Positions 11,348-39,480 of a DNA stretch of 64,000 nt are shown here, in pieces. Under the pieces are notes generated by a model, which searched no databases, was not told the origin of the DNA, and worked only from the letters and a program-made list of their open reading frames with translations. This stretch comes from Candidatus Hydrothermarchaeum profundi (GTDB lineage: Archaea > Hydrothermarchaeota > Hydrothermarchaeia > Hydrothermarchaeales > Hydrothermarchaeaceae). The position numbers and the translations under genes are program-made. The DNA lies in the NCBI GenBank assembly GCA_002011125.2, contig MTMF02000009.1:482995-546994 (forward strand), in the 5' to 3' direction. Numbering within the stretch: the stretch's first letter is position 1; each line of letters opens with the position of its first letter.

Positions 11348-12242
11348 AGAATGCCCAGAATGTGGCTGTAGGAGTATAACGAGAGATTATGAGAGAGCAG
11401 AAATAGTGTGTAATGAATGTGGCCTGGTAATAGATGAAAAAATCATGGATACAGGCCCGGAGTGGAGAGCCTTCGATTATGAACAAAGGGTTAAGAGAAG
11501 CAGGGTTGGAGCCCCAATGACGTATACAATCCATGATAAGGGTCTTTCCACGGTTATTGACTGGAGGAACCGGGATAGCTATGGAAAAGACATCGTGAGG
11601 CATAGAGCACAACTTCACCGGATGAGGAAGTGGCAGCAGAGGATCAGGGTCTCTAACGCTACTGAGCGCAACCTCGCCTTCGCCTTAACAGAGCTAGACC
11701 GTGTCGCATCACGCCTAGGCCTGCCGAGGAACGTACGGGAGACGGCCGCGGTAGTCTACCGCAGGGCAGTGGAAAAAGGCCTTATACGCGGAAGAAGCAT
11801 AGAAGGCGTAGCCGCCTCAGCCCTTTATGCTGCATGCCGGCAGTGCCGGGTGCCTAGGACCCTTGACGAGATCGCTGACGCGGCCAAGCTCAACCGGAAA
11901 GAGATCGGCAGGACATACCGCTTCGTAGCCAGGGAGCTAGGCATCAACCTTAACCCGACCACGCCCATAGACTACGTGCCCAGGTTCGGCTCAGCCCTCA
12001 AGCTCTCAGGCGAGGTCCAGAGCAAGGCCATCGAGATACTTAAGAAGGCCATGGAGCAAGAGCTCACCTCAGGCAGGGGGCCTACGGGCGTCTCAGCCGC
12101 GGCGATATACATCGCCAGCGTCCTGCTCGGCGAAAGAAGGACCCAGCGGGAGGTCGCCGACGTAGCCGGCGTAACCGAGGTCACCATCAGAAACAGATAC
12201 AAGGAGCTAGCCGAAAGACTAGACATCGAAATCACCATCTAA
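11322..12242 (+). CDS. tfb: Transcription initiation factor IIB
   Basis: CPEC...CNECG Zn ribbon, GPEWRAF B-reader, two cyclin folds; GTG at 11322 follows GGAGG. Confidence 0.98.
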
Positions 12243-15606: not shown

Positions 15607-15680
15607 CCCGGCGTAGCTCAACCTGGTAGAGCGGTGGACTGTAGATCCACTGGTTGCTGGTTCAAATCCGGCCGCCGGGA
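15607..15680 (+). tRNA. tRNA-Tyr(GTA)
   Basis: Cloverleaf CCCGGCG...CGCCGGGA; anticodon arm GTGGA-CT-GTA-GA-TCCAC; C1-G72 pair typical of archaeal tRNA-Tyr. Confidence 0.97.
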
Positions 15681-15851
15681 CTACTAAAATTCTACTACTC
15701 TTTTTAGCTGAGCAGTAAAAGATCCCCAGATTTTGAGCTTGGTGGATAAGAAGCTATATCTTAAAAGAAAAAGCTGGAGATTAATTTAATTCCGCACAGC
15801 TGGTTAAAACGGTGGTATTCTTGCGGAATCTTTATAAATAATGGAACAAAA

Positions 15852-16406
15852 ATGTTACACATGGAACAAAATTTAATCTTCGAAATTGTGGATGCCCTTC
15901 TAGGCGAGGAGCTTCATGCAAGGGCGCTGGCTAAAAAGCTGAAAACCAACCACATGACGGTTGTGAGAAAGTTGAGGGGGCTTGTAGAGGAGAATGTGTT
16001 AGACTTTAGGCTGGAGGGAAGAAATAAGGTCTACTTCCTTAAAAAGAGCGTGGAGGCTAGGAGCTATGCAATCATGACAGAACTCTATAAGTTGAACAAA
16101 ACGCTGAGGAGGTATCCAGAATTGAGAAATATAGTTGCGAGCATCCAGAAAAACGCAAAGATAAAGCTTGCCGTTCTCTTTGGGAGCTATGCAAAAGGTA
16201 TAGCAAAGGAAGGCAGTGACATAGACCTTTTCATAGAAACAAGAGATAGGAGCCTGAAACGGGAGTTGGAACTTCTGAATTCAAAGCTGAGCGTTAAAAT
16301 TGGAGATTACGACAAGTCAAGTCTGCTCATTGGGGAAATTGAGAAAAATCATGTAATAGTAAAAGGAGCAGAATTGTACTATGAGAAAAACAGGTTTTTT
16401 TACTAA
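15852..16406 (+). CDS. HTH + minimal nucleotidyltransferase (MNT antitoxin)
   Basis: N-terminal wHTH and LFGSYAKG...SDIDL. Confidence 0.9.
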   Translation: MLHMEQNLIFEIVDALLGEELHARALAKKLKTNHMTVVRKLRGLVEENVLDFRLEGRNKVYFLKKSVEARSYAIMTELYKLNKTLRRYPELRNIVASIQKNAKIKLAVLFGSYAKGIAKEGSDIDLFIETRDRSLKRELELLNSKLSVKIGDYDKSSLLIGEIEKNHVIVKGAELYYEKNRFFY

Positions 16407-16854
16407 GTTGCATGAAGAAGGCAAGCTACAACTTGCTGAACCCAGTGAGGAGATAAAGGCAGCCTACCTGAAAAAATCTGAAAGCTACCTTGTATCCGCA
16501 AAGCTCCTCTTAGATAATGGTAGGCTAGAAGAATCCGTTTCTATGGCATACTATAGCATGTATTACATACTTCTCGCCCTACTTTTCAGGGTCGGTATAA
16601 AATGTGAAAATCACTCTGCTGCAATAATTCTGCTTAAAAAGATATTCAACATAGATAACTCAGAGATATCTTCAGCTAAAAGGGAGAGGATTGACAAGCA
16701 GTACTATGTCGATTTCTCCAGTGTCGAGGAAGAAGTCGAAGAATTAATTACTACAGCAGAGAGGTTCAATTCCAAAATTCTAGACTTTATAGAGAAACTG
16801 AATAGTGAAAAGATATCAGAGTTCAGGAAGAAGATGGAAAAGCTACTGAGGTAA
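16381..16854 (+). CDS. HEPN domain protein (toxin of HEPN-MNT pair)
   Basis: AYYSMY...ALL...ENH...RIDKQY pattern; overlaps the MNT gene. Confidence 0.85.
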   Translation: MRKTGFFTKLHEEGKLQLAEPSEEIKAAYLKKSESYLVSAKLLLDNGRLEESVSMAYYSMYYILLALLFRVGIKCENHSAAIILLKKIFNIDNSEISSAKRERIDKQYYVDFSSVEEEVEELITTAERFNSKILDFIEKLNSEKISEFRKKMEKLLR

Positions 16855-17088
16855 TATGCCAACCTTCATGGGATATTATAAAAATTATTAAAAGATTTTT
16901 GTCCTGATTTTTGGTTCAAGGTTTTTCACTTTTAAAGCCTTTCTAATGGGTTAGATTTTTTTCATTTTTCACTTTTCCAGTGCTCTTGGAAAATATATTA
17001 GGTGTTTAATTGAGAATAAAAAGTGTTAATGAGTATGTTAGGTTGTTAGAAGATAAAGGAAGTTTTAGCTTTATTTTTAATCTTTCTA

Positions 17089-17883
17089 GTGGTATCTTCT
17101 CTTGGATGTGCTGCGCCTACTAGCGTTAAAAAGAGAGATTTCGTTCAGCAACATGGTGTCCTCTCTTCCTTTGATGATCTAAAGAACTGCGGTTATGATG
17201 AAGAACTAATAGCTTTAATACAGAGTTTTTCAGAGCTAGATGCGGGGTTCGATCAGTCCCTTGCTGCTGGGGTTGCAGTAAAGATTTCTTCAGGATTAGA
17301 AGAACTTGAACCTATCGATCCCACGAGGCTTGAAGACTATGAGAGCTTCAAAAGAAACGTAGAGAGATTTAACAGGGTCTCTGATATAATCAAGGAGAAC
17401 ACTGGTAAGGATTTTGGAAAAATAACGATATCGCGAGGTAAATACGACGAAATAATGTCAACTGCAGTGAAATACGCTCCTCTTGTCAACTCTTATAACG
17501 AGCTAATCGAATCGTCTAAAAATCTTGATCCAGAGGATGAGGACTCGGTAAGGAGATTTTATATCGCGCTATTCCTAGTAGGCGTGGATATTGCGCTAAT
17601 AAACTCGGGGGCAATCTACAAAGGGACATATAAGTCGGTCTGGGAGATAAACCAAGCGCTTGGACTGAGAGAAGTTGTTCCTTTCATAGGATACAAAGGA
17701 TATGGTTTTCTCCTTTCATCCATACACTGGACGTTAAGGGGGTATATTGAAGGGTTTAAGAACGACGTTTATGAAGTTTTATTAGATGAGACCACGCAAG
17801 ACCTTAAACGGGGCCTTAAGAACAAAGGAAAAGACATAAGCGCAACTATTGAAAAAACTCTACAGAGGTTATTGAGACGATAG
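17089..17883 (+). CDS. Hypothetical lipoprotein
   Basis: In-frame upstream KIKEVLALFLIFLVVSSLGC lipobox; start probably upstream of 17089. Confidence 0.7.
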   Translation: MVSSLGCAAPTSVKKRDFVQQHGVLSSFDDLKNCGYDEELIALIQSFSELDAGFDQSLAAGVAVKISSGLEELEPIDPTRLEDYESFKRNVERFNRVSDIIKENTGKDFGKITISRGKYDEIMSTAVKYAPLVNSYNELIESSKNLDPEDEDSVRRFYIALFLVGVDIALINSGAIYKGTYKSVWEINQALGLREVVPFIGYKGYGFLLSSIHWTLRGYIEGFKNDVYEVLLDETTQDLKRGLKNKGKDISATIEKTLQRLLRR

Positions 17884-17972
17884 AGTGATCCAAGAAGTAG
17901 GATCTCTTTAAGATGTAGTAATCAGTAGACGGAAACTTCACTCTCTAGTTCAGATCCTAGTATTCTTCTATT

Positions 17973-17988
17973 CGCCGGGACTACTAAA
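17973..17988 (+). repeat. Copy of tRNA-Tyr 3' end plus flank (att-like)
   Basis: CGCCGGGACTACTAAA identical to 15673-15688. Confidence 0.85.
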
Positions 17989-18286
17989 TCTTCCAATCCG
18001 GGCGTGATTCTTGCCCTATTTCTGCGTGTTTTTTCCATTCCGCTTCTACGTCTAATTAAAAAACTATCATCAAATGTTTTAGATGGAGCATCCAAAAAAT
18101 AGGAAATCCTATCGTTCAGGCTATCGGGGGGATTTCTAAGATTCTCGGGAGAGACCTGATAGAAAGCCTCAAAACGCTATTTAATACTTAGGCTTCCAGT
18201 CTGATTTCTCCGGCAGCGATAGGGTGAGCCAAGGGCCTACCCTCATAGAAGTCCCTCATCACCTTGTCAATCTTCCGCGAGATCGA

Positions 18287-18796
18287 TTAAATATCTTCTA
18301 TTTTCCGGATAGCTTCTTCTATTATCTTTGGTTCGATCCAGTATTCCTCGGGCTTTTCTATAAATTTCTCTAGTAATGCTACAGCATCTCTTCTGTCAAT
18401 TACTCCTCTTTTTGTTGCCTCAAATATAATCCCAATGGTACCTTTGACCTGTAATCCTTCATTTTTTGCGGCGTCTCTACCTTCCCCTTCGTTCATGAGG
18501 ACAAGAGAAGCTCCAACTTCTCTTGCCAACTGGATGGAATCGGCCTCCCCCTTGTGAATGCGATACTTTTTAATCAAGTGTTCAGAAGAGGATTCAGGAT
18601 TTTTAATGTAGATGCTCTTGTCTATGTAATTCTGGATGAGTTCTGCATCTTCTTTTTCTAGGAGAGTTCCCTCTTCAACAACCTCTCTATAAACCTCACT
18701 TGTAATCGCCACTTTTTTATACAATGAGAAAAGGACATCCAAGCGACCTATTTTAGCGAGGTGAATTAGAGGCGTAGAATCGCTCACCACGATCAT
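18287..18796 (-). CDS. PIN-domain toxin (DUF3368-like)
   Basis: VVSDSTPLIHLAKIG...GEADSI...GTIGI. Confidence 0.9.
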   Translation of the reverse strand: MIVVSDSTPLIHLAKIGRLDVLFSLYKKVAITSEVYREVVEEGTLLEKEDAELIQNYIDKSIYIKNPESSSEHLIKKYRIHKGEADSIQLAREVGASLVLMNEGEGRDAAKNEGLQVKGTIGIIFEATKRGVIDRRDAVALLEKFIEKPEEYWIEPKIIEEAIRKIEDI

Positions 18797-19098
18797 GTAG
18801 TGTCCTCGGCGAGTTCTTCTTTACCGTAGTGGATATACACTCCTCTTTTTCCAAGCTCCTCTAACGTCTCCCGTAGGGTGAGGCCCATAATATCTGCAGC
18901 TTCGCGCATAGTTATTTTGCCCTCTCTGTATAATTCTGCCACTTCATCTATGGACTCTTTTTTGCTGTACTCTCTAAGTATTCTCCTTATTCCGTCCCTT
19001 ATAACTTCTGAAAGATTAGAATAGTGTTTGCCTATTAGATATTTCTCTACGTCTTTTTCCAATTCTCTGGGTATAGTTATAGTTTTTTTCACATACAT
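18793..19098 (-). CDS. RHH/UPF0175 antitoxin
   Basis: N-terminal RHH (TITIP...YSNLSEVIRDGIR) and ELYREGKITMREAA. Confidence 0.88.
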   Translation of the reverse strand: MYVKKTITIPRELEKDVEKYLIGKHYSNLSEVIRDGIRRILREYSKKESIDEVAELYREGKITMREAADIMGLTLRETLEELGKRGVYIHYGKEELAEDTT

Positions 19099-19246
19099 AT
19101 TTAATACCTCTTTTATGCGTATTGAATATTTAACGATATTAATTTTTTATCAACAACTCAACCAAGCTAATAAAATAGTTTTAGGCGTTTTTAGTTAGTA
19201 GTTTTAATTGTATGTTTTCTAGTTAAAACCTAAGCTTTTATCTAGT

Positions 19247-19262
19247 CGCTGGGACTGCTAAA
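19247..19262 (+). repeat. Second, degenerate copy of tRNA-Tyr 3' end plus flank
   Basis: CGCTGGGACTGCTAAA, 2 mismatches versus 15673-15688; downstream sequence resembles that after 17988. Confidence 0.7.
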
Positions 19263-19433
19263 ATCTTCTACTCTGGCGTAATTTTTACCTATTTTTTGAA
19301 AATAGTTAGGGGTTTTCTTGCTCGATGTATCGTATTTTTTCTATTTCACTTCTATTTAACCAAATCTCCTCTTTAGAGTAGAACAAGCTGAAGCAAACCG
19401 GCTGATAGTTTTTTATTCTAGTTTGTTTTTTGG

Positions 19434-19910
19434 CTACTTAGTAAAATAGGATGTCAATATCTCTATAAATTTCTCTGGATCCCTAGTAGTTAATACAAGA
19501 GCCCTGAACACTCCGTTCTTTTTCTCAATTTCTACGGCAGGCTTATGCATACTCACATAAGCTAACCTTCTTCTCCAAATTCTAAGACCCCAACCTACAT
19601 ACCAAGGGATCTTTTCAATTACCCGGACTTTTTTGATTTCATTAAATGAGATCCTATAAGTAAAAGGGGGCATTATGGCTTCTACACCCTTAGATGTTAT
19701 TCTAAACCGCATATTAAAAAAGGACCAATACGCTACTACAAGAATAGTGCTTACGGCCGCAAGGAGAGTAGGAGGGGCATCTGACATTTTATAAATACCT
19801 ACAAGAGAGAATAATGTCGCGACGATCAAAAACAGAACAGAGCATAGAAAGATCGCTCTTATTCTAAAGGAATATGGTGCACTCTCTTCGTACATAATCG
19901 CGGACATCAT
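19434..19910 (-). CDS. Membrane protein with bacterial PH-like domain
   Basis: Two TM helices, then GWGLRI...AVEI...LTTRDPEKF. Confidence 0.75.
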   Translation of the reverse strand: MMSAIMYEESAPYSFRIRAIFLCSVLFLIVATLFSLVGIYKMSDAPPTLLAAVSTILVVAYWSFFNMRFRITSKGVEAIMPPFTYRISFNEIKKVRVIEKIPWYVGWGLRIWRRRLAYVSMHKPAVEIEKKNGVFRALVLTTRDPEKFIEILTSYFTK

Positions 19911-20102
19911 TTTTTTAGATATTTATAACTTGGCATTATAACTGGCCACAATATCCCCTCCGATTTCTATGAATCTTTTTGTTAATGTATTTTAAGCCGT
20001 TAACATTATATCAATTTACCAGCCATTACTAATACTAGGACTGAAATAAAGCGTTACGAAAAGTTTATATATAGATATAATAATGTCATGGTTACCATAC
20101 AT

Positions 20103-20230
20103 TGGGTATGGCGGCCATAGCGGAGGGGCCACACCCGTTCCCATCCGAACACGGAAGTAAAGTCCTCCAGCGATCCTGGCGGTACTATGGTGCGCGAGCC
20201 CATGGGAAACCAGGGACGCCGCCAGCCCAC
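20103..20230 (+). rRNA. rrf: 5S rRNA
   Basis: GGCGGCCATAGCGGAGGGG...CCCGTTCCCATCCGAACACGGAAGT...CGCCGCCA; terminal helix; not linked to 16S/23S. Confidence 0.97.
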
Positions 20231-20282
20231 TTAAAATCACCCAAGAGAGTGATCAAAATAGTTTGTGATAGGTATCTAGATA

Positions 20283-20405: not shown

Positions 20406-20519
20406 GGGCCCGTAGCTCAGTCTGGCTAGAGCACCGGCCTTTTAACAGTCCTTTTCACTGCGTTACTGGAAGGGTTGAAAGAAAGCCGGGTGTCGCGGGT
20501 TCAAATCCCGTCGGGCCCG
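20406..20519 (+). tRNA. tRNA-Lys(TTT) with canonical 37/38 intron (~20445-20483)
   Basis: GGGCCCG...CGGGCCCG; CCGGC-CT-TTT-A-[intron]-A-GCCGG. Confidence 0.93.
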
Positions 20520-33575: not shown

Positions 33576-33695
33576 GCCGGGGTAGTCTAGACCGGTAAGG
33601 CGCAGGCCTGGAGTTTTATCTAATATATTCTAGTTAGGAAACCAGATAGCCTGTGTTGCTCATGCAACGCGGGAGTTCAAATCTCCCCCCCGGCG
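33576..33695 (+). tRNA. tRNA-Ser(GGA) with canonical intron (~33614-33647)
   Basis: GCCGGGG...CCCCGGCG; CAGGC-CT-GGA-G-[intron]-A-GCCTG; long variable arm. Confidence 0.93.
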
Positions 33696-33833
33696 CTCAT
33701 TAAAATCCTTCATCAAAGCACGATTCATGCTTATTTTCCGCAGATTTACCCTAATTATCTTGTGCTATTTTTTCATTCACCCTTTAATTCACTCTCAGAT
33801 TTGAACTTGTATCTAATTTTCAGATCAGCAGAG

Positions 33834-34118
33834 CTAACCTTTTTCTATCACTCTCTCTATATAGTCCGTTATCTCTTTGCTTAGAGCCGGATTGAGGGAT
33901 ACTGTTTTCCCACCCTTATGTAAAAGGAGATAACCGTCCTCCACAAGAACCTTGACGAGCCCTTTAATCCGCTTCCCATTCCTCTTGACTTTTTTGGAAA
34001 GCCAGTTAATCAGGGTGTCTACGGGCAAATACTTCGCTCCCCAACAACCTTTTCTTAACAACCTGTTCATTATGTCGGCTTTTATTTCCGCATCGCTTTT
34101 GACTGACATAAAGTTCAC
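33834..34118 (-). CDS. Small winged-helix-like protein
   Basis: VKVLVEDGYLL...VSLNP wing pattern; divergent from an HTH gene. Confidence 0.65.
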   Translation of the reverse strand: MNFMSVKSDAEIKADIMNRLLRKGCWGAKYLPVDTLINWLSKKVKRNGKRIKGLVKVLVEDGYLLLHKGGKTVSLNPALSKEITDYIERVIEKG

Positions 34119-34179
34119 TTATAATACCTTTTAAAGGAAAAATATAAATACTTTTATCCTCCAATTTGTTCTTGAGAAG

Positions 34180-34557
34180 ATGCCAGAAGAGCTGTACACA
34201 AAAAAAGAATACGGGTCGTTACTGATAAAGACCCTGGGAGACTCGCCAAAGCTGAGGATAATAGATTTCTTCCTAGACAACCCTATGTTCGACTTTACCA
34301 AGAAAGAAGTCATCGAAGCCCTAGGAATGAGCAAGCAAACCCTCTACAAGTACTTCCCGGATTTGGAAGAATATGGGGTGATCGAAGTTTCTAGGAAGAT
34401 AGGAAAAGCCAAACTCTACAAGATAAACTTGAAGCATCCCCTAGTCAGTATGCTTAGGGAATACGAGAAAAAAATCTCGCTTCAAATAGCAGAGAAAGAA
34501 AGAGCCAAACTTCAAGAACCCGTGCCAACGCAGCCCAGGGAAAAATTGAAAACTTAA
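34180..34557 (+). CDS. ArsR-like winged HTH protein
   Basis: LGDSPKLRIIDFF...GMSKQTLY...IGKAKLYKIN. Confidence 0.8.
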   Translation: MPEELYTKKEYGSLLIKTLGDSPKLRIIDFFLDNPMFDFTKKEVIEALGMSKQTLYKYFPDLEEYGVIEVSRKIGKAKLYKINLKHPLVSMLREYEKKISLQIAEKERAKLQEPVPTQPREKLKT

Positions 34558-34750
34558 ATCGGCTAACCGCAAAAACCTAAAACCACCAAAAACGGCCATT
34601 ATAAGTTTTTAAGTTCAGACCTGAATATTTACCTAGCCCTCGGCGCTTTTTTTACCGGTAAATTAGGGAAAGACAAAGACTATCTAGGAAAGGGCTATTT
34701 ATGTCTAATTGCCCCAAGACGTCCATAAAAAATGTTTACATCTACTAGGA

Positions 34751-35333: not shown

Positions 35334-36371
35334 TCATTTAAGTTCATAATGGGCGCCTCTCCCGCTTCCTTTGAGTTCTATCACATCCATTTTGACGAGT
35401 TTTGATAGTTCCTTTAAGGCTGCCTGCCTGGTGATTTTAAACATATTTGCCACATTTCCTGCCGTTATCCTTCCGTTTCTCTGCATGAATTCTATTATTT
35501 TCATTTGTCTTTCGGTTAAAGCAATCTGTCCTTTTTCCTTTCTTTTTCTTCCTTCAACAGAGAGCTGTAGAACTTTTTCTTTAACCCTTGATATTGAAAT
35601 CTTTACTCCTTCTGTGAAATACTCAAGCCATGGGGTCAAATCAAGTGCGTTCTGATCAACCGATTTTAGAGCTTCATAATAGGCTCTTCTGTCACTGTCA
35701 TAATAATCATCCAGTGTAAAGAACCTTTTGATGTCAAATTCTCTTAGATAGAGAATAAGGGTGGCAAGTGCCCTTGCGGTTCTTCCATTTCCGTCTGCAA
35801 AGGGATGAACCCTCACGAATTCATAGTGGGAAATGCCAGCAACAATAACAGGATGAAGTTCAAGAGTTTCTTTGGAATTAAGCCATTTGATAAAGTTTTT
35901 CATCAATTCGGGGACTTCCTCTGACGGTGGAGGCATGAATATAACCTGGCCTGTAATTCTATTGCCAACATAGACCAGAATTTTTCTGTATTTTCCTTCC
36001 CATTCTGGATTATCAAGCGTGTCTTTTGTTATGTCTTTATGCAACTTTAAGATGTGTTCCTCTGTAATCTTTCCGTTTTTCTGATATTTTTCTATGTTTT
36101 CAAGCACTTTTAGATAATTCAGGACTTCCTGTTTTGCCCTTCTTGTCGCGGTTACCTTTCTTCCCTGTGCGAGGTTGCTTACTTCCTCAAGAGTTAATGG
36201 ATTTCCTTCAATGGCTGTGGATGCATGGGTTGCCCTGATTAGGGCTTCTCTTCTCAAAGATATCTCCCATTTAGGAATGAGATATGCATTCAGAATAACC
36301 TCTCTTGCCGAGGTAATTTCAACGAGGTTGTTGACTATGGCGTTCGTGTATCTGAAATTTGGCTTAAGCAT
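35334..36371 (-). CDS. Fic family protein with C-terminal HTH
   Basis: HPFADGNGRTAR catalytic motif; STAIEGN inhibitory-type motif. Confidence 0.95.
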   Translation of the reverse strand: MLKPNFRYTNAIVNNLVEITSAREVILNAYLIPKWEISLRREALIRATHASTAIEGNPLTLEEVSNLAQGRKVTATRRAKQEVLNYLKVLENIEKYQKNGKITEEHILKLHKDITKDTLDNPEWEGKYRKILVYVGNRITGQVIFMPPPSEEVPELMKNFIKWLNSKETLELHPVIVAGISHYEFVRVHPFADGNGRTARALATLILYLREFDIKRFFTLDDYYDSDRRAYYEALKSVDQNALDLTPWLEYFTEGVKISISRVKEKVLQLSVEGRKRKEKGQIALTERQMKIIEFMQRNGRITAGNVANMFKITRQAALKELSKLVKMDVIELKGSGRGAHYELK

Positions 36372-39300
36372 TTTCTCCCTCTATCACTTTAACCCAAGGG
36401 TGGGATTTTATCTTTTTAATAGTTTCCATTATCTCCCCATCCGCAGTTATCTCCTCATAGACCTTTTCAATGGCTGTCATCTTTTCTTCATCCGACCCCA
36501 ACTCTTCAATATCAATAAGATAGGGCTCCACCAGTTCGGCAAGATTGGTGGGCACGCCGTCTTCTTGGAATTTTTCTTTGAAGTATAATGAATAAATTAA
36601 AGAATCAAGTATTTTTCCAGAAAAAAAATCAATAATTTTAGAAACTTGATGAGCATTATTATTGAGAAAAATTAAGTAACTTGACAGTTTTAAAAATCCT
36701 GTAATTTTTTCGGGGATTATAATTGGAAGATCTTTTAGAAACGAAATTGGATATCTTAAAGAACCTTGTGGGATTCTAGCAGAATAGAATTTTTTCTTGT
36801 GAATCCAGTTAAATAATTTTGAATTCAACAACGTTAAAATATACTTATTTTTCTCGATGTCGTTTGTACTAAAAGAATGGACAGCAACTAATAAACCAAT
36901 GCCTTCAGTGTCAATAGCTGCAGTTAATTTTTTTGCAACCCCTCGAATTATTATTTTGTTTTTCTGTAAAAACAAATCTTTTGTGTCATCAGATAGAGGA
37001 GCACTCTCAATGGAGATATGCGGAAAATTGAAATTCTTTTTATAGATTTTTACATTTTTACCCCACAAAAATCCATAAGGTTTTATGTAGCTATTTGTTA
37101 CGATTTTGCAAGATTTTTTGTCAGTCTTTCCTTCGTGTATATAGGACTCCATATTCCAATATTCAAATCCCATGACCCCTGTTCGAACATCTCCGACCTG
37201 TCCCAATGGAACTGAATTAGAACTACTTGAGCTGAGTATTTCATTTACACTCTTATCACTGAAGACTTGGAAATGTCCACTGGCAGAATCAATTAATTCG
37301 CTTTTTTTGATAGATTTGCCTTTATTTTTATTTAAAGTTCCTAGTTCTTTTTCGGATTCAATTATGATAATTTTTACTTGATAGTCTCTTTCATTTTTTT
37401 CTTTTCTTAGGATCATTACAGCTGTCGAAACTAAAGCATCTTGGAAGATACTCTTTGCTTTTGAAAAATCAATTATTTCCCTGATAGTACAATTTTTTAA
37501 AAGAAAATCTCTTAACTTTTTCCCGTAATCTGCAACAAAATATTTGTTAGATGTAATATAACCCATAAGCCCCTTTTCGTTCAAAACATTGATTGATTTT
37601 TCAAAGAACAGAATGTAGATATCATACGGCCCGTATGCAGTAGAATAAATTTTATTAAATATCTTTTTTTCAGCAGGGATCTTTGAGGCTTTCACATATG
37701 GTGGATTCCCTATCAAAATATCGAAACCTCTTTCACCTTTTGGTCTATCAGGATCAAAAACTTCATAGAACTCAAAGCCCCAATGGAAGGGGTGGAGGGC
37801 CTCAAGCTCTTCTTTGGAGATTTTGATTTTGTAATCCACAGTAAGCATCCTGTGGAATTTTTCATTGAGCTCTGGTCTGAACTTCTCGTTAATCCGCTCG
37901 ATGTCCCTTTTCAAATTCTCGGCAATCTTCGGGTCAGTAGTGGCTTTGTATTGATCAAGAAGAGCCCCCTTTGCTTTTATTATTTGCATTGTCGTATCTG
38001 CAGAGTCCAGGGTCGTCTGTTCCACAAGGGGGGCTTCCACAAAGCCGATTAGACTGTTGCCGTGCATGATATTGTAATCGATGTTGGGGAGGGGTTCCAC
38101 GCTCTCGATACTCAGGTCAGAGATCATGGAAAGCCACAGCCTGAGCTTTGCGATTTCGACAGCCCCATCCTCTAAATCGACGCCGTAGATGTTTTGGGTG
38201 GCTATGATCCTCTTAAAATAATAATCTGGGGAACCATAACTATCAATGGCCTTGTTCTCGGCGGAAAAAACCAACTCGTCTTTAAGAATTCTATAGCACT
38301 TGCGATAGAGGGCAAGAAGTATCTTGTGGGCGGCCATGAGAAATGCTCCGCTCCCGCAGGCGTTATCCAGCACCCGGAGTTCTTTCAAAATATTGAAATA
38401 GAGATAGGAGACCCTGTCAATTTCATTTTTGGAGAATTCCTGCTTGTCCAGCAATTCGGACCAGATGTTCTTGTAATCTGTCCCAAACCTCTCGTTCAGC
38501 CTGTCCCGTAGATATGGATAGATGGTGTTCATGGATATGTATTCGGTTATTTCCGAGGGGGTATAATAGGCCCCCTTGCACTTCCTCCCTGTTACACTCT
38601 GCTCGAAAATGTGGCCGAGTATCGAGGGAGTCAGGACGACCGCATCCTCATGCCGTTCCTCAACGACCCACTCATAGGAGTCAAAGAGTCTGAAAATCTC
38701 TCCCCATATCCCGTCCTTTATCGATATCTCATTATCAATCTCAACCTCCTTCTTTCTAAAAAGACCTCCATTGAGATAGGGAATGTTTCCAAGATTTACT
38801 CCGTTCACTTCGATTTTTTCATGAAAAGGGTGGTCATAGTTGAAGGCATTGAAGAAGAGGGGTTTGAGGTAGTCGTTGAAGAAATTCCTTTTTTTGTCCC
38901 TGTTTCTATAGAGATTTGTTAAGTAATCCTTTTCTATAATCTCTCTGCTTTGGAGGAAATAGATGAAAATAATCCTATCAAGAAGCACTTGGGAATAAAA
39001 CCATCTCTCATCGTCATCCAGTCCCTTTAGCGAATCTGAAAGTCTGGTCTTTATAACCTTATATTCATCATAGAACTTCTTTACAAGGGGTTTGGTATCA
39101 AAAAGTGCCTGGAAACTGTCATTGTATGCTTTGTCTTCATATTTCAGGGCATTCAGCAACTGGAGCCTGCTCAGCTTTGTATAGTCCCTCTCCCTGCGGT
39201 TCTTGTCATAGACGAACTTGAAAGGAGTATGGTATTCAGAGAATATATAGTAAACGTCGAAGTCATTATCTATGAAAATGTAGTAGGGCGTCATATGGAC

Positions 39301-39480
39301 ACCCTTCTTTTCTCGAAATAATTGATAGGCGTGTGAGTAATTCAAATCATCAGTGAAATAATACTTGGCTTTATGCTCCCTGTCGATCCAGAAAGTCTCC
39401 TCATCAATGTATACAAAACCCTTATCATGGAAAAAATGCTCCTCAAAGTCTTCCCTCGAAGAGATGTCTTCAAACTTCAT
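36364..39480 (-). CDS. Eco57I/type IIG-like N6-adenine DNA methyltransferase with C-terminal TRD
   Basis: GAYYTP, LDNACGSGAF (motif I), IGNPPY (motif IV), YLNGGLF, TaqI_C-like LLNSKL. Confidence 0.92.
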   Translation of the reverse strand: MKFEDISSREDFEEHFFHDKGFVYIDEETFWIDREHKAKYYFTDDLNYSHAYQLFREKKGVHMTPYYIFIDNDFDVYYIFSEYHTPFKFVYDKNRRERDYTKLSRLQLLNALKYEDKAYNDSFQALFDTKPLVKKFYDEYKVIKTRLSDSLKGLDDDERWFYSQVLLDRIIFIYFLQSREIIEKDYLTNLYRNRDKKRNFFNDYLKPLFFNAFNYDHPFHEKIEVNGVNLGNIPYLNGGLFRKKEVEIDNEISIKDGIWGEIFRLFDSYEWVVEERHEDAVVLTPSILGHIFEQSVTGRKCKGAYYTPSEITEYISMNTIYPYLRDRLNERFGTDYKNIWSELLDKQEFSKNEIDRVSYLYFNILKELRVLDNACGSGAFLMAAHKILLALYRKCYRILKDELVFSAENKAIDSYGSPDYYFKRIIATQNIYGVDLEDGAVEIAKLRLWLSMISDLSIESVEPLPNIDYNIMHGNSLIGFVEAPLVEQTTLDSADTTMQIIKAKGALLDQYKATTDPKIAENLKRDIERINEKFRPELNEKFHRMLTVDYKIKISKEELEALHPFHWGFEFYEVFDPDRPKGERGFDILIGNPPYVKASKIPAEKKIFNKIYSTAYGPYDIYILFFEKSINVLNEKGLMGYITSNKYFVADYGKKLRDFLLKNCTIREIIDFSKAKSIFQDALVSTAVMILRKEKNERDYQVKIIIIESEKELGTLNKNKGKSIKKSELIDSASGHFQVFSDKSVNEILSSSSSNSVPLGQVGDVRTGVMGFEYWNMESYIHEGKTDKKSCKIVTNSYIKPYGFLWGKNVKIYKKNFNFPHISIESAPLSDDTKDLFLQKNKIIIRGVAKKLTAAIDTEGIGLLVAVHSFSTNDIEKNKYILTLLNSKLFNWIHKKKFYSARIPQGSLRYPISFLKDLPIIIPEKITGFLKLSSYLIFLNNNAHQVSKIIDFFSGKILDSLIYSLYFKEKFQEDGVPTNLAELVEPYLIDIEELGSDEEKMTAIEKVYEEITADGEIMETIKKIKSHPWVKVIEGENA

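Follow-up and report, generated by a model that had tools for sequence, protein, structure and literature searches.

Recombinase-free gene cassettes stacked behind the tRNA-Tyr gene of Candidatus Hydrothermarchaeum profundi: probable tandem accretion through attP-like junctions

How does a tRNA gene come to be followed by a row of small accessory-gene cassettes none of which carries a recombinase gene? The question is raised by the tRNA-Tyr (GTA) gene of Candidatus Hydrothermarchaeum profundi and by the 4.4 kb between it and the 5S rRNA gene, an interval that holds three such cassettes. The locus lies in a stretch of 64,000 nucleotides (nt), here called the window, which covers positions 482995-546994 of contig C9 of a metagenome-assembled genome of 2,186,281 nt in 19 contigs; coordinates without a prefix are window positions, and C3, C8, C9 and C16 are contigs of the same assembly. 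A preliminary description, made from the letters of the window, had taken the interval for an ordered, integron-like record of cassettes captured by a recombinase acting in trans. Our reading, to which we assign a probability of roughly 0.6, is that the tRNA-Tyr stack arose by Campbell-type accretion of non-autonomous cassettes that share one family of attachment-site arms (family B), with the recombinase supplied in trans. The target, the junctions and the end of the slot are as follows.

15607-15680, + strand: intact tRNA-Tyr (GTA) gene, the attachment target (ARAGORN; Rfam RF00005, 68.1 bits)
15673-15688, + strand: core copy 1, attL-type, the last 8 nt of tRNA-Tyr and CTACTAAA
17941-17972, + strand: left arm of junction 2, family B, beginning AGTTCAGATCCTAGTATT (nhmmer E 7.8e-4, a training member; pattern match)
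17973-17988, + strand: core copy 2, an exact match to CGCCGGGACTACTAAA
17982-18065, + strand: right arm of junction 2, family B (nhmmer 2.5e-11), ~25-37 nt shorter than that of copy 3
19214-19246, + strand: left arm of junction 3 (nhmmer 1.3e-3, a training member), which aligns to the left arm of copy 2
19247-19262, + strand: core copy 3, with 2 mismatches to CGCCGGGACTACTAAA
19255-19364, + strand: right arm of junction 3, more complete than any other family-B right arm at tRNA-Tyr (nhmmer 4.9e-14)
20107-20227, + strand: 5S rRNA gene (Rfam, 96.9 bits), the start of a 5S-tRNA-Asp-tRNA-rpoH-rpoB block that is kept in relatives and closes the slot

Since the tRNA gene ends at 15680, the core is only 8 nt of tRNA plus 8 nt of trailer. 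A search of the window for CGCCGGGACTACTAAA with up to 3 mismatches gave 3 matches against 0.37 expected, and three copies occurred in 0 of 100 shuffles; genome-wide, at up to 2 mismatches, there were 3 forward and 0 reverse matches, all at tRNA-Tyr, and the reversed control gave 0. These counts agree with the three copies of the preliminary description (exact, exact, 2-mismatch); its statement that divergence grows with distance from the tRNA is weakened, the gradient being merely 0, 0 and 2 mismatches. The sequence that copies 2 and 3 had been said to share downstream was found as well, together with 29 nt of likeness upstream, so that they are alike on both sides: the alignment of 17944-18021 with 19218-19294 scored 50, whereas 100 shuffles averaged 22.9 and reached 30 at most. 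A second block common to the two copies lies further right, past a gap of 25-37 nt in copy 2, and contigs from three metagenome runs (X3-X5, see below) have 25 extra letters in the right arm of junction 2 that resemble copy 3. Copies 2 and 3 are attP-like three-part junctions, made up of a left arm of ~32 nt, the core (8 nt of acceptor end and CTACTAAA) and a right arm of 55-110 nt, and copy 1 consists of the tRNA, the core and a weak right arm: just past it, 15689-15701 still resembles the right arm of copy 3 for 13 further bases, and the 29-nt alignment of copies 1 and 3 scored 36 against a shuffle maximum of 31. The right arm alone at copy 1 and both arms at the inner copies form the pattern that tandem Campbell-type insertions predict, in which an inner junction combines the left arm of one element with the right arm of the next.

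The shortness of the core (16 nt) and the origin of the genome, assembled from a metagenome in 19 contigs, could suggest that the repeats are a chance similarity or an assembly artefact. We regard the probability of this as negligible, given the absence of three copies from all 100 shuffles and the likeness of the arms beyond shuffle level; moreover, each of the three junctions is spanned by mismatch-free contigs of an independent run, X2, and therefore the array is not an assembly artefact. Folded as DNA, the four junction units gave no attC-type hairpin on the + strand (z -1.4, -1.6, -0.7 and +1.0), and of two minus-strand junction folds one stands out (z -3.45). We consider an integron-type single-strand attC mechanism unlikely because the junction units lack a hairpin fold. 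A split integrase of the SSV type is also unlikely because the arm indels are not multiples of three and no integrase-like reading frames are present; in line with this, tblastn found no integrase-like coding sequence, of the kind that int(N) or int(C) would leave, next to any junction.

If the cassettes are units bounded by these junctions, other samples might differ from the window at the core. Parts of the locus are present in seven metagenome runs, of which X2 to X5 were compared; that most of the chromosomal flanks had no X3-X5 match at 90% likeness or above was not taken as evidence. Joints at the level of the core were found as 15686->17986 in X3, X4 and X5 and as 19260->20103 in X3. 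An X5 contig of 3191 nt (depth 26), taken in the orientation of the window, reads, in order, 30 nt of tRNA-Tyr tail with the core, 17986-18015, 25 extra letters, 18008-18284, a further 1013 nt, 15672-17370 and 19031-19127, and X3 and X4 have the same joints at depths of ~340-800. In X3-X5 the tRNA-Tyr tail is joined directly to the arm of cassette 2, which is the product expected with cassette 1 absent from the first position, and the MNT-HEPN cassette, which is cassette 1 of the window, begins exactly at the core and stands not next to the tRNA but behind another cassette. Contigs of X3 and X4 match the window from 17944, the start of the left arm, and the DNA before that point is unlike the window. 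The X3 contig with the joint 19260->20103 connects copy 3 to a point just before the 5S gene, possibly with other letters between, and a low-depth X3 contig has copy 2 and then, after 67 nt, the UPF0175 gene without the PIN gene. A joint 15685->20332 in X5, which links two tRNA T-arms, was set aside as cross-matching between tRNAs. The segments differ in how closely they match between samples.

15672-17370, cassette 1, against X5: 8 substitutions and one 4-nt insertion in 1699 nt, 99.5% identity
18008-18284, arm of cassette 2, against X5: 13 substitutions and 18 gap letters in 277 nt, ~95% by substitutions and 89% with gap letters
19031-19127, against X5: 7 substitutions in 97 nt, ~93%
20054-20277, 5S region, against X4: 16 substitutions and 3 gap letters in 224 nt, ~93%

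Cassette 1 at 99.5%, as compared with ~93% for its neighbours, therefore points to a recent transfer of this cassette as a unit. Breakpoints at the core in X3-X5 and the 99.5% match of cassette 1 there uphold the earlier proposal that the repeats delimit discrete cassettes. The comparison of cassette content and order that had been suggested along with it gave the expected result in that both differ in X3-X5 with breakpoints at the core, except for one joint that lies off the core and is taken up below.

The arms of these junctions are not restricted to tRNA-Tyr. Family-B arms bound islets of 0.95-3.5 kb at five tRNA genes, namely Tyr, Ser(GCT), a tRNA at window position 33576, Leu(CAA) and Phe, and the middle part between the arms matches the local tRNA. 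A right-arm nhmmer profile gave six matches with E up to 2.5e-11, all six belonging to its training set, and the next match at 0.51; the six sites follow tRNA-Phe, tRNA-Leu(CAA) and the window-33576 tRNA, lie in the distal repeat at tRNA-Ser(GCT), and are Tyr copies 2 and 3. The trailer of tRNA-Phe (C9:284265) is 80% identical to the right arm of junction 3 over 53-54 nt, and that behind tRNA-Leu(CAA) (C9:1079084) is related to the right arm. The Ser(GCT) repeat came out of a screen of 45 ARAGORN tRNAs for repeats of their 3' ends as a 17-nt exact repeat 1.9 kb behind the gene, and its distal copy consists of a left arm akin to those of Tyr copies 2 and 3 (AGTTCAGACCTGAGTATT-ACCTAG), the acceptor end of tRNA-Ser and a family-B right arm.

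A left-arm pattern was built from three sites, Tyr copies 2 and 3 and the distal copy at tRNA-Ser(GCT), and found 8 sites genome-wide, against 3 when reversed as a control. The 8 include a new site 0.9 kb downstream of the window-33576 tRNA and another 2.8 kb downstream of tRNA-Leu(CAA); both lie in the orientation of the tRNA and continue with TACCTA and ~10 nt like the local acceptor end. With a profile of five left arms, the best match outside the training set (E 0.057) lay 3.4 kb behind tRNA-Phe, followed by a decayed core (6/10 nt). Every tRNA-linked left arm has the orientation of its tRNA and is followed by ~10 nt that resemble its acceptor end. The calculated probability that a random site would fall within 4 kb behind the Phe, Leu(CAA) or window-33576 tRNA in the right orientation is ~0.003, and therefore three such finds are not due to chance. 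A direct search for distal cores with up to 3 mismatches in 16 had given none behind these three tRNAs; the decayed ones were found later by way of the left arm. One of the islets lies in the window itself.

33576-33695, + strand: intron-bearing class II tRNA gene (tRNA-Ser), missed by ARAGORN (Rfam tRNA, 43.5 bits)
33576-34647, + strand: second family-B islet of the window, comprising tRNA, right arm, two small open reading frames (ORFs), left arm and decayed core
33698-33787, + strand: its right arm (nhmmer 7.8e-16)
33834-34118, - strand, and 34180-34557, + strand: its two small ORFs
34605-34636, + strand: its left arm (nhmmer 2.7e-5)
34636-34647, + strand: its decayed core, GCCCTCGGCGCT

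Could the same picture be produced by no site-specific recombinase at all, the repeats being copies of tRNA trailers and terminators and the cassettes being shuffled by homologous or short-homology recombination of the host after uptake of DNA from relatives? We consider this quite improbable. Homologous exchange of modules between tandem archaeal elements is discussed in PMC8371274, and CTAyT straight after the tRNA end is common among the tRNAs of this genome. At tRNA-Ser(TGA), furthermore, a HicB/HicA pair lies between 90-nt direct repeats that are ~90% identical (C9:1423070-1423893); the repeats comprise the last 14 nt of the tRNA and its trailer, copied 0.66 kb behind, have no family-B arms and look like the outcome of a single crossover over long homology. 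On account of its different flanks, we treat this HicAB islet as a case separate from family B. At tRNA-Tyr, exact identity extends over just 16 nt, and across the tRNA genes a conserved left arm is combined with 8-12 adjoining nt that are specific to each tRNA; this combination argues for a site recognised by a protein rather than for plain homology. Nor is the family-B trailer of tRNA-Phe common to relatives: tRNA-Phe itself was matched in 9 of 12, none beyond position 82 of the 175 compared, which fits an arm brought by an element. No usable synteny around tRNA-Phe was found in 6 relatives.

The same arrangement suggests a wider scheme, which we put forward as a doubtful but possible extension. 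One recombinase might recognise the two arms, and an exchangeable middle of 8-12 nt might pick the tRNA gene, which would make family B a retargetable archaeal cassette system. Such a system would shuffle recombinase-free toxin-antitoxin and defence cassettes among tRNA loci and between lineages, and would be a counterpart of the integron that works on tRNA ends.

What do the cassettes carry? The genes in the tRNA-Tyr stack are listed first, and the cargo of the other four islets after them.

15852-16406, + strand: MNT-type nucleotidyltransferase with an N-terminal winged helix-turn-helix (wHTH) domain, antitoxin-like (PF18765, 6e-12; PF01909, 2.4e-10)
16381-16854, + strand: HEPN protein, the toxin-like partner of MNT (PF05168, 1.5e-11)
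17089-17883, + strand: 264-aa ORF with a lipobox-like N-terminus, without a match in Pfam, NCBIfam or PADLOC
18188-18284, - strand: remnant of a YgiT-type zinc-finger antitoxin gene, its last 32 codons (81.4% over 97 nt to C9:789254-789350, E 2e-20)
18287-18796, - strand: PIN-like protein (DUF3368), toxin-like (PF11848, 2.6e-8; PF20698, 5.6e-6; PADLOC PDC-S70, 9e-33)
18793-19098, - strand: UPF0175 protein with a weakly ribbon-helix-helix-like N-terminus, antitoxin-like (PF03683, 2.2e-13; VapB/ParD-type matches under their cut-offs)
19434-19910, - strand: 158-aa membrane protein (a sub-threshold Pfam match only), with no fourth repeat beyond it
Islet at the window-33576 tRNA, 0.95 kb: two small proteins, one with a helix-turn-helix
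Islet at tRNA-Ser(GCT), 1.9 kb: Fic
Islet at tRNA-Leu(CAA), 2.8 kb: two proteins of no family
Islet at tRNA-Phe, 3.45 kb: ThaI endonuclease, an N6/N4 methylase, a wHTH protein and a DUF7718/HVO_A0114 pair

Each cassette has 1-3 genes, and both orientations occur; the cargo of family B includes toxin-antitoxin and defence genes, namely MNT-HEPN, PIN/UPF0175, Fic and the ThaI restriction-modification system. Cassette 1 (2.3 kb) consists of the MNT-HEPN pair, whose MNT protein reaches 35 bits with the NCBIfam MntA model, under that model's cut-off, and of the 264-aa ORF of no family, which has no clean start codon upstream of its lipobox-like start and in X3-X5 has 4 nt inserted at 17297 and is truncated at 17370. 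Cassette 2 (1.27 kb) holds the YgiT-type remnant and the PIN(DUF3368)/UPF0175 pair, the PADLOC candidate PDC-S70. The truncated end of YgiT directly abuts the stop codon of the PIN gene; an intact homologue, an 81-aa ORF (C9:789254-789350; TIGR03831, 1.4e-11), adjoins a DUF4258 gene. This intact DUF4258/YgiT-type pair (C9:~788000-789350) lies beside a stretch that in translation looks like a CRISPR array and near a Cas1 gene (C9:784208). The outermost stretch, about 0.85 kb, has the 158-aa membrane protein, which is either cargo of the oldest cassette or a native gene. Of the gene content given in the preliminary description, HEPN-MNT, PIN and the membrane protein were confirmed; its lipoprotein is only lipobox-like and without a clean start, its ribbon-helix-helix protein is a weak case, and the YgiT remnant was missing from its gene list. 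Past the window-33576 islet, 35334-39480 encodes a Fic protein and also an enzyme of 1038 aa that is restriction-modification-like.

The cargo also bears on a further explanation, namely that the cassettes are decayed remnants of larger, integrase-bearing elements whose toxin-antitoxin genes and att sites survived internal deletion. Deletions are indeed visible: YgiT is cut to 32 codons, the right arm of copy 2 is shortened, and the joint 17370->19031, present in X3-X5, lies inside two genes. Integrase decay is seen elsewhere in the genome, where the integrase gene adjoining tRNA-Thr(CGT) is a pseudogene with 2 stops; archaeal elements are reported to have lost their integrase once integrated (PMC8371274), and a decay route to cis-mobilizable elements (CIMEs) is described for streptococcal islands (PMC5704250). 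However, no integrase or detectable fragment of one was found at the five tRNAs, all of which keep their arms (6 left-arm-bounded cassettes and 2 outer stretches), the cassettes are merely 0.95-3.5 kb, and the MNT-HEPN cassette has moved or been exchanged recently in its small form (99.5%, beginning at the core). We thus hold an origin by decay alone to be unlikely, though a serious candidate. The preliminary description had named remnants of deleted elements as its own alternative, which is partly right in view of the joint inside genes, the truncated YgiT and the ~25-37 nt missing from the arm of copy 2. Around the off-core joint, 17351-17368 and 19041-19058 form an 18-nt inverted repeat, 83% complementary, whose arms would form a hairpin in that variant.

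Where, then, might a recombinase come from? The claim that the locus has no integrase proved correct: PF00589 gave 5 matches in the genome (C9:157112, C9:1303608, which is a pseudogene, and one each on C16, C8 and C3) and 0 in the window or in any islet, and tblastn with three tyrosine recombinases and one resolvase against 8 islet stretches found no integrase fragment (best E 0.079). Among other recombinases genome-wide there were one resolvase (C9:1376706), one Cas1 by a CRISPR array and no IS110 transposase, and none of these lies near the islets. The proposed look for a tyrosine recombinase elsewhere gave these five PF00589 matches, none of which is tied to family-B arms. One of the elements concerned is informative about the genome: at tRNA-Cys (C9:~147430-158138), an element of 10.6 kb with a 12-nt repeat of the tRNA end and an arm family other than B has an intact 397-aa integrase with a C-terminal Zn ribbon directly behind the tRNA. 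We count it as support for accretion with a recombinase in trans because it shows that this genome has an autonomous element of the tRNA-end type. The conserved hairpin trailer of this element is also found after tRNA-Thr(CGT) and tRNA-Glu(CTC). Contig C3 (C3:1-25245) begins inside a tRNA-Val(TAC)-like gene that is not the same as the tRNA-Val(TAC) of the chromosome. A ~49-nt repeat of the 3' half of this gene closes the contig, and a divergent ORF of 317 aa that resembles tyrosine recombinases lies at the same end. C3 has the look of an element that is integrated or represents an alternative allele, and it may come from another organism in the bin. An 18-nt motif in its trailer was marginal as a family-B right arm (scores of 24-25 against shuffle maxima of 26-27) and was rejected.

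Under the trans-recombinase reading, a circular DNA with an attP (left arm, acceptor-end stretch with CTACTAAA, right arm) would recombine with the extreme 3' end of the tRNA gene, strand exchange taking place inside the short identity, presumably by a tyrosine-type recombinase. Each insertion would leave the tRNA intact and the right arm of the element behind it, and the inner junctions would be attP-like with both arms because each insertion pushes the previous junction outward. As no family-B member has a recombinase gene, the enzyme would have to come from elsewhere. Candidate sources are the tyrosine recombinases that the assembly encodes outside the islets, among them proteins of 397 aa (C9:156815-158008), 437 aa (C8:115024-116337) and 317 aa (C3:24171-25124), or an autonomous element that this genome lacks. 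The toxin-antitoxin cargo probably favours retention of the cassettes, the T-rich right arm (oligo-T) probably gives the tRNA gene a new terminator, and illegitimate deletions would then erode the cassettes. Of the capture by a recombinase in trans that the preliminary description proposed, the part that stands is that recombination junctions bound the cassettes; no trans recombinase was found.

Several observations weigh against this reading. The X3-X5 contigs are short-read unitig assemblies of mixed populations, and in the 3191-nt contig of X5 a stretch of 1013 nt is not placed on the window; X2, the only run with the species, has the same array as the window. Neither a circle junction nor an empty site was present among the joints listed in the assembled X2-X5 contigs. 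The joint 17370->19031 is off the core and inside two genes; together with the truncation of YgiT it implies that decay contributes, and the small size of the cassettes might in principle be due to decay as well. At its outer end the stack has no attR, a search of 19905-20110 for a fourth repeat before the 5S gene having given no copy of the junction unit above shuffle level, and the distal cores at tRNA-Phe (6/10 nt) and tRNA-Leu(CAA) are decayed. The arm statistics come from one genome, and most of the arm sequences also built the profiles. No recombinase was found to which the arms could be tied; an autonomous family-B relative had 0 matches in viral_contigs and 0 in genome_contigs, neither of which includes a close relative of the genus, and the arms occurred in 0 of 37 other genomes of the class, again with no close relative of the genus among them. 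The ordered record that had been proposed is weakened: because the MNT-HEPN cassette is first in the window and behind another cassette in X3-X5, cassette position is not a clean clock.

Does the slot behind tRNA-Tyr have a history in related archaea? RpoB of this genome is 79% identical to its counterpart in Candidatus Hydrothermarchaeota MAGs. The order OMPdc, deoxyhypusine synthase (DHS), 473-aa protein and tRNA-Tyr is kept in 7 relatives. In G015, a genome of the same order, tRNA-Tyr is followed by ~2 kb of unrelated genes and then by 5S-tRNA-Asp-tRNA-Lys-rpoH, from which we conclude that the tRNA-Tyr/5S slot is old and variable. None of six island proteins (0/6) matched any of the loci of 38 relatives, and CTACTAAA was absent from the tRNA-Tyr trailers of 15 relatives. 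The exact 16-mer had 24 matches in genome_contigs, all bacterial and in unrelated context, and 2 in viral_contigs, in unrelated sequence, one of them at the end of an apparent small ORF; the 26 nt of tRNA tail and trailer had 0 matches in metagenome_contigs. The MNT protein has its best match at 59% in genome_contigs (47 loci) and at 73% in metagenome_contigs (at least 80 loci). A tRNA lies near its relatives at 1 of 15 loci in the former and 2 of 29 in the latter, and the core was present at 0 of 29 loci, so that no context was gained. For the 473-aa protein encoded upstream of tRNA-Tyr, genome_contigs contained no close relative. Composition showed no contrast between the island (GC content 0.33-0.42) and its flanks (0.35-0.45); the TFB gene region at 11600-12199 has a GC content of 0.60, its surroundings 0.35-0.45. 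At 20406-20519, Rfam has an intron-containing tRNA (57.4 bits) that ARAGORN did not report, and relatives have tRNA-Lys(TTT) at the matching position; at C9:1321583-1321652 ARAGORN calls a tRNA-Pyl (CTA).

If mobilisation in trans is true, family B would be a compact archaeal gene-capture system for defence and addiction modules, with ~100-150 nt of cis sequence per cassette and aimable at different tRNAs. It would help to explain small accessory islets beside archaeal tRNA genes that have no visible mobile-element genes, and the combination of left arm, core and right arm with a tRNA end would be a concrete substrate for finding the enzyme. If the cassettes are only decay products, the locus would be an ordinary, tidy case of a tRNA gene at which elements integrated in tandem and then eroded. 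Set beside what marks elements that target tRNA genes, the tRNA-Tyr stack has core repeats with an intact tRNA and variation with breakpoints at the core, and it has neither an integrase gene nor a remnant of one.

How does the stack compare with systems already described? Integration at archaeal tRNA genes is reportedly the subject of 'Gene capture in archaeal chromosomes' by She et al. 2001, and ssrA-linked islands are said to occur in Dehalococcoides (PMC3146451). Mobile integrons consist of small recombinase-free cassettes stacked at one site, with the enzyme encoded elsewhere, and toxin-antitoxin cassettes occur among them. The tRNA-Tyr array is like them in its stacked small cassettes without a recombinase of their own and in its toxin-antitoxin cassettes. 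Unlike an integron, however, it has no adjoining IntI (it abuts the tRNA and 5S genes) and no attC-type hairpins; its genes face in both directions and presumably have their own promoters, and its site is a tRNA end. The term integron-like in the preliminary description thus applies by analogy only.

A close bacterial parallel is offered by the CIMEs and the tandem accretion described in PMC5704250 at tRNA genes in Firmicutes (ICESt1-related islands), streptococci included. Like the tRNA-Tyr cassettes, CIMEs have attL and attR at a tRNA 3' end, lack integration genes and form tandem stacks with chimeric inner att sites; the tRNA-Tyr cassettes likewise keep attL and attR and have no integration or transfer genes. 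By that account, CIMEs are decay products of integrative and conjugative elements or integrative and mobilizable elements with known autonomous relatives, whereas no autonomous relative of family B was found in viral_contigs, genome_contigs or 37 other genomes of the class. In contrast to CIMEs, the units of family B are 1-3.5 kb, have one arm family for five tRNAs and reside in an archaeal host.

In archaea, too, repeated use of a single tRNA site is reported to have built arrays (PMC6563490 and PMC8371274). Like the tRNA-Tyr stack, the tandem tyrosine-recombinase elements described there target the 3' end of a tRNA, leave direct repeats of its tail, re-use the site and leave captured genes in place. 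They comprise proviruses, plasmids and cryptic elements, range from several kb to tens of kb and encode an integrase, whole or split in two, while the tRNA-Tyr cassettes have no integrase or fragment and their repeats combine 8-12 nt of tRNA with conserved non-tRNA arms. Fragments of tRNA left by integrations are discussed for Thermococcaceae in PMC9897764. In the tycheposon islands of Prochlorococcus (10.1101/2020.12.28.424599), older elements are displaced outward by newly arriving ones, with partial tRNAs and remnants left behind; the likeness to the tRNA-Tyr stack includes the place next to a tRNA, partial tRNA copies between integrations, degenerate remnants and defence or niche cargo. 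Tycheposons, by the same account, have their own tyrosine or serine recombinase, often replication genes, and a size of ~10 kb or more, and the tRNA-Tyr units carry neither a recombinase nor replication genes. A limited search of the literature gave no account of a family of cassettes without a recombinase, found at several archaeal tRNA genes, in which the arms are conserved and the middle is specific to each tRNA. In summary, tandem accretion and integrase-less, att-flanked elements are already known in bacteria, and what is new here is one arm family that serves five tRNA genes.

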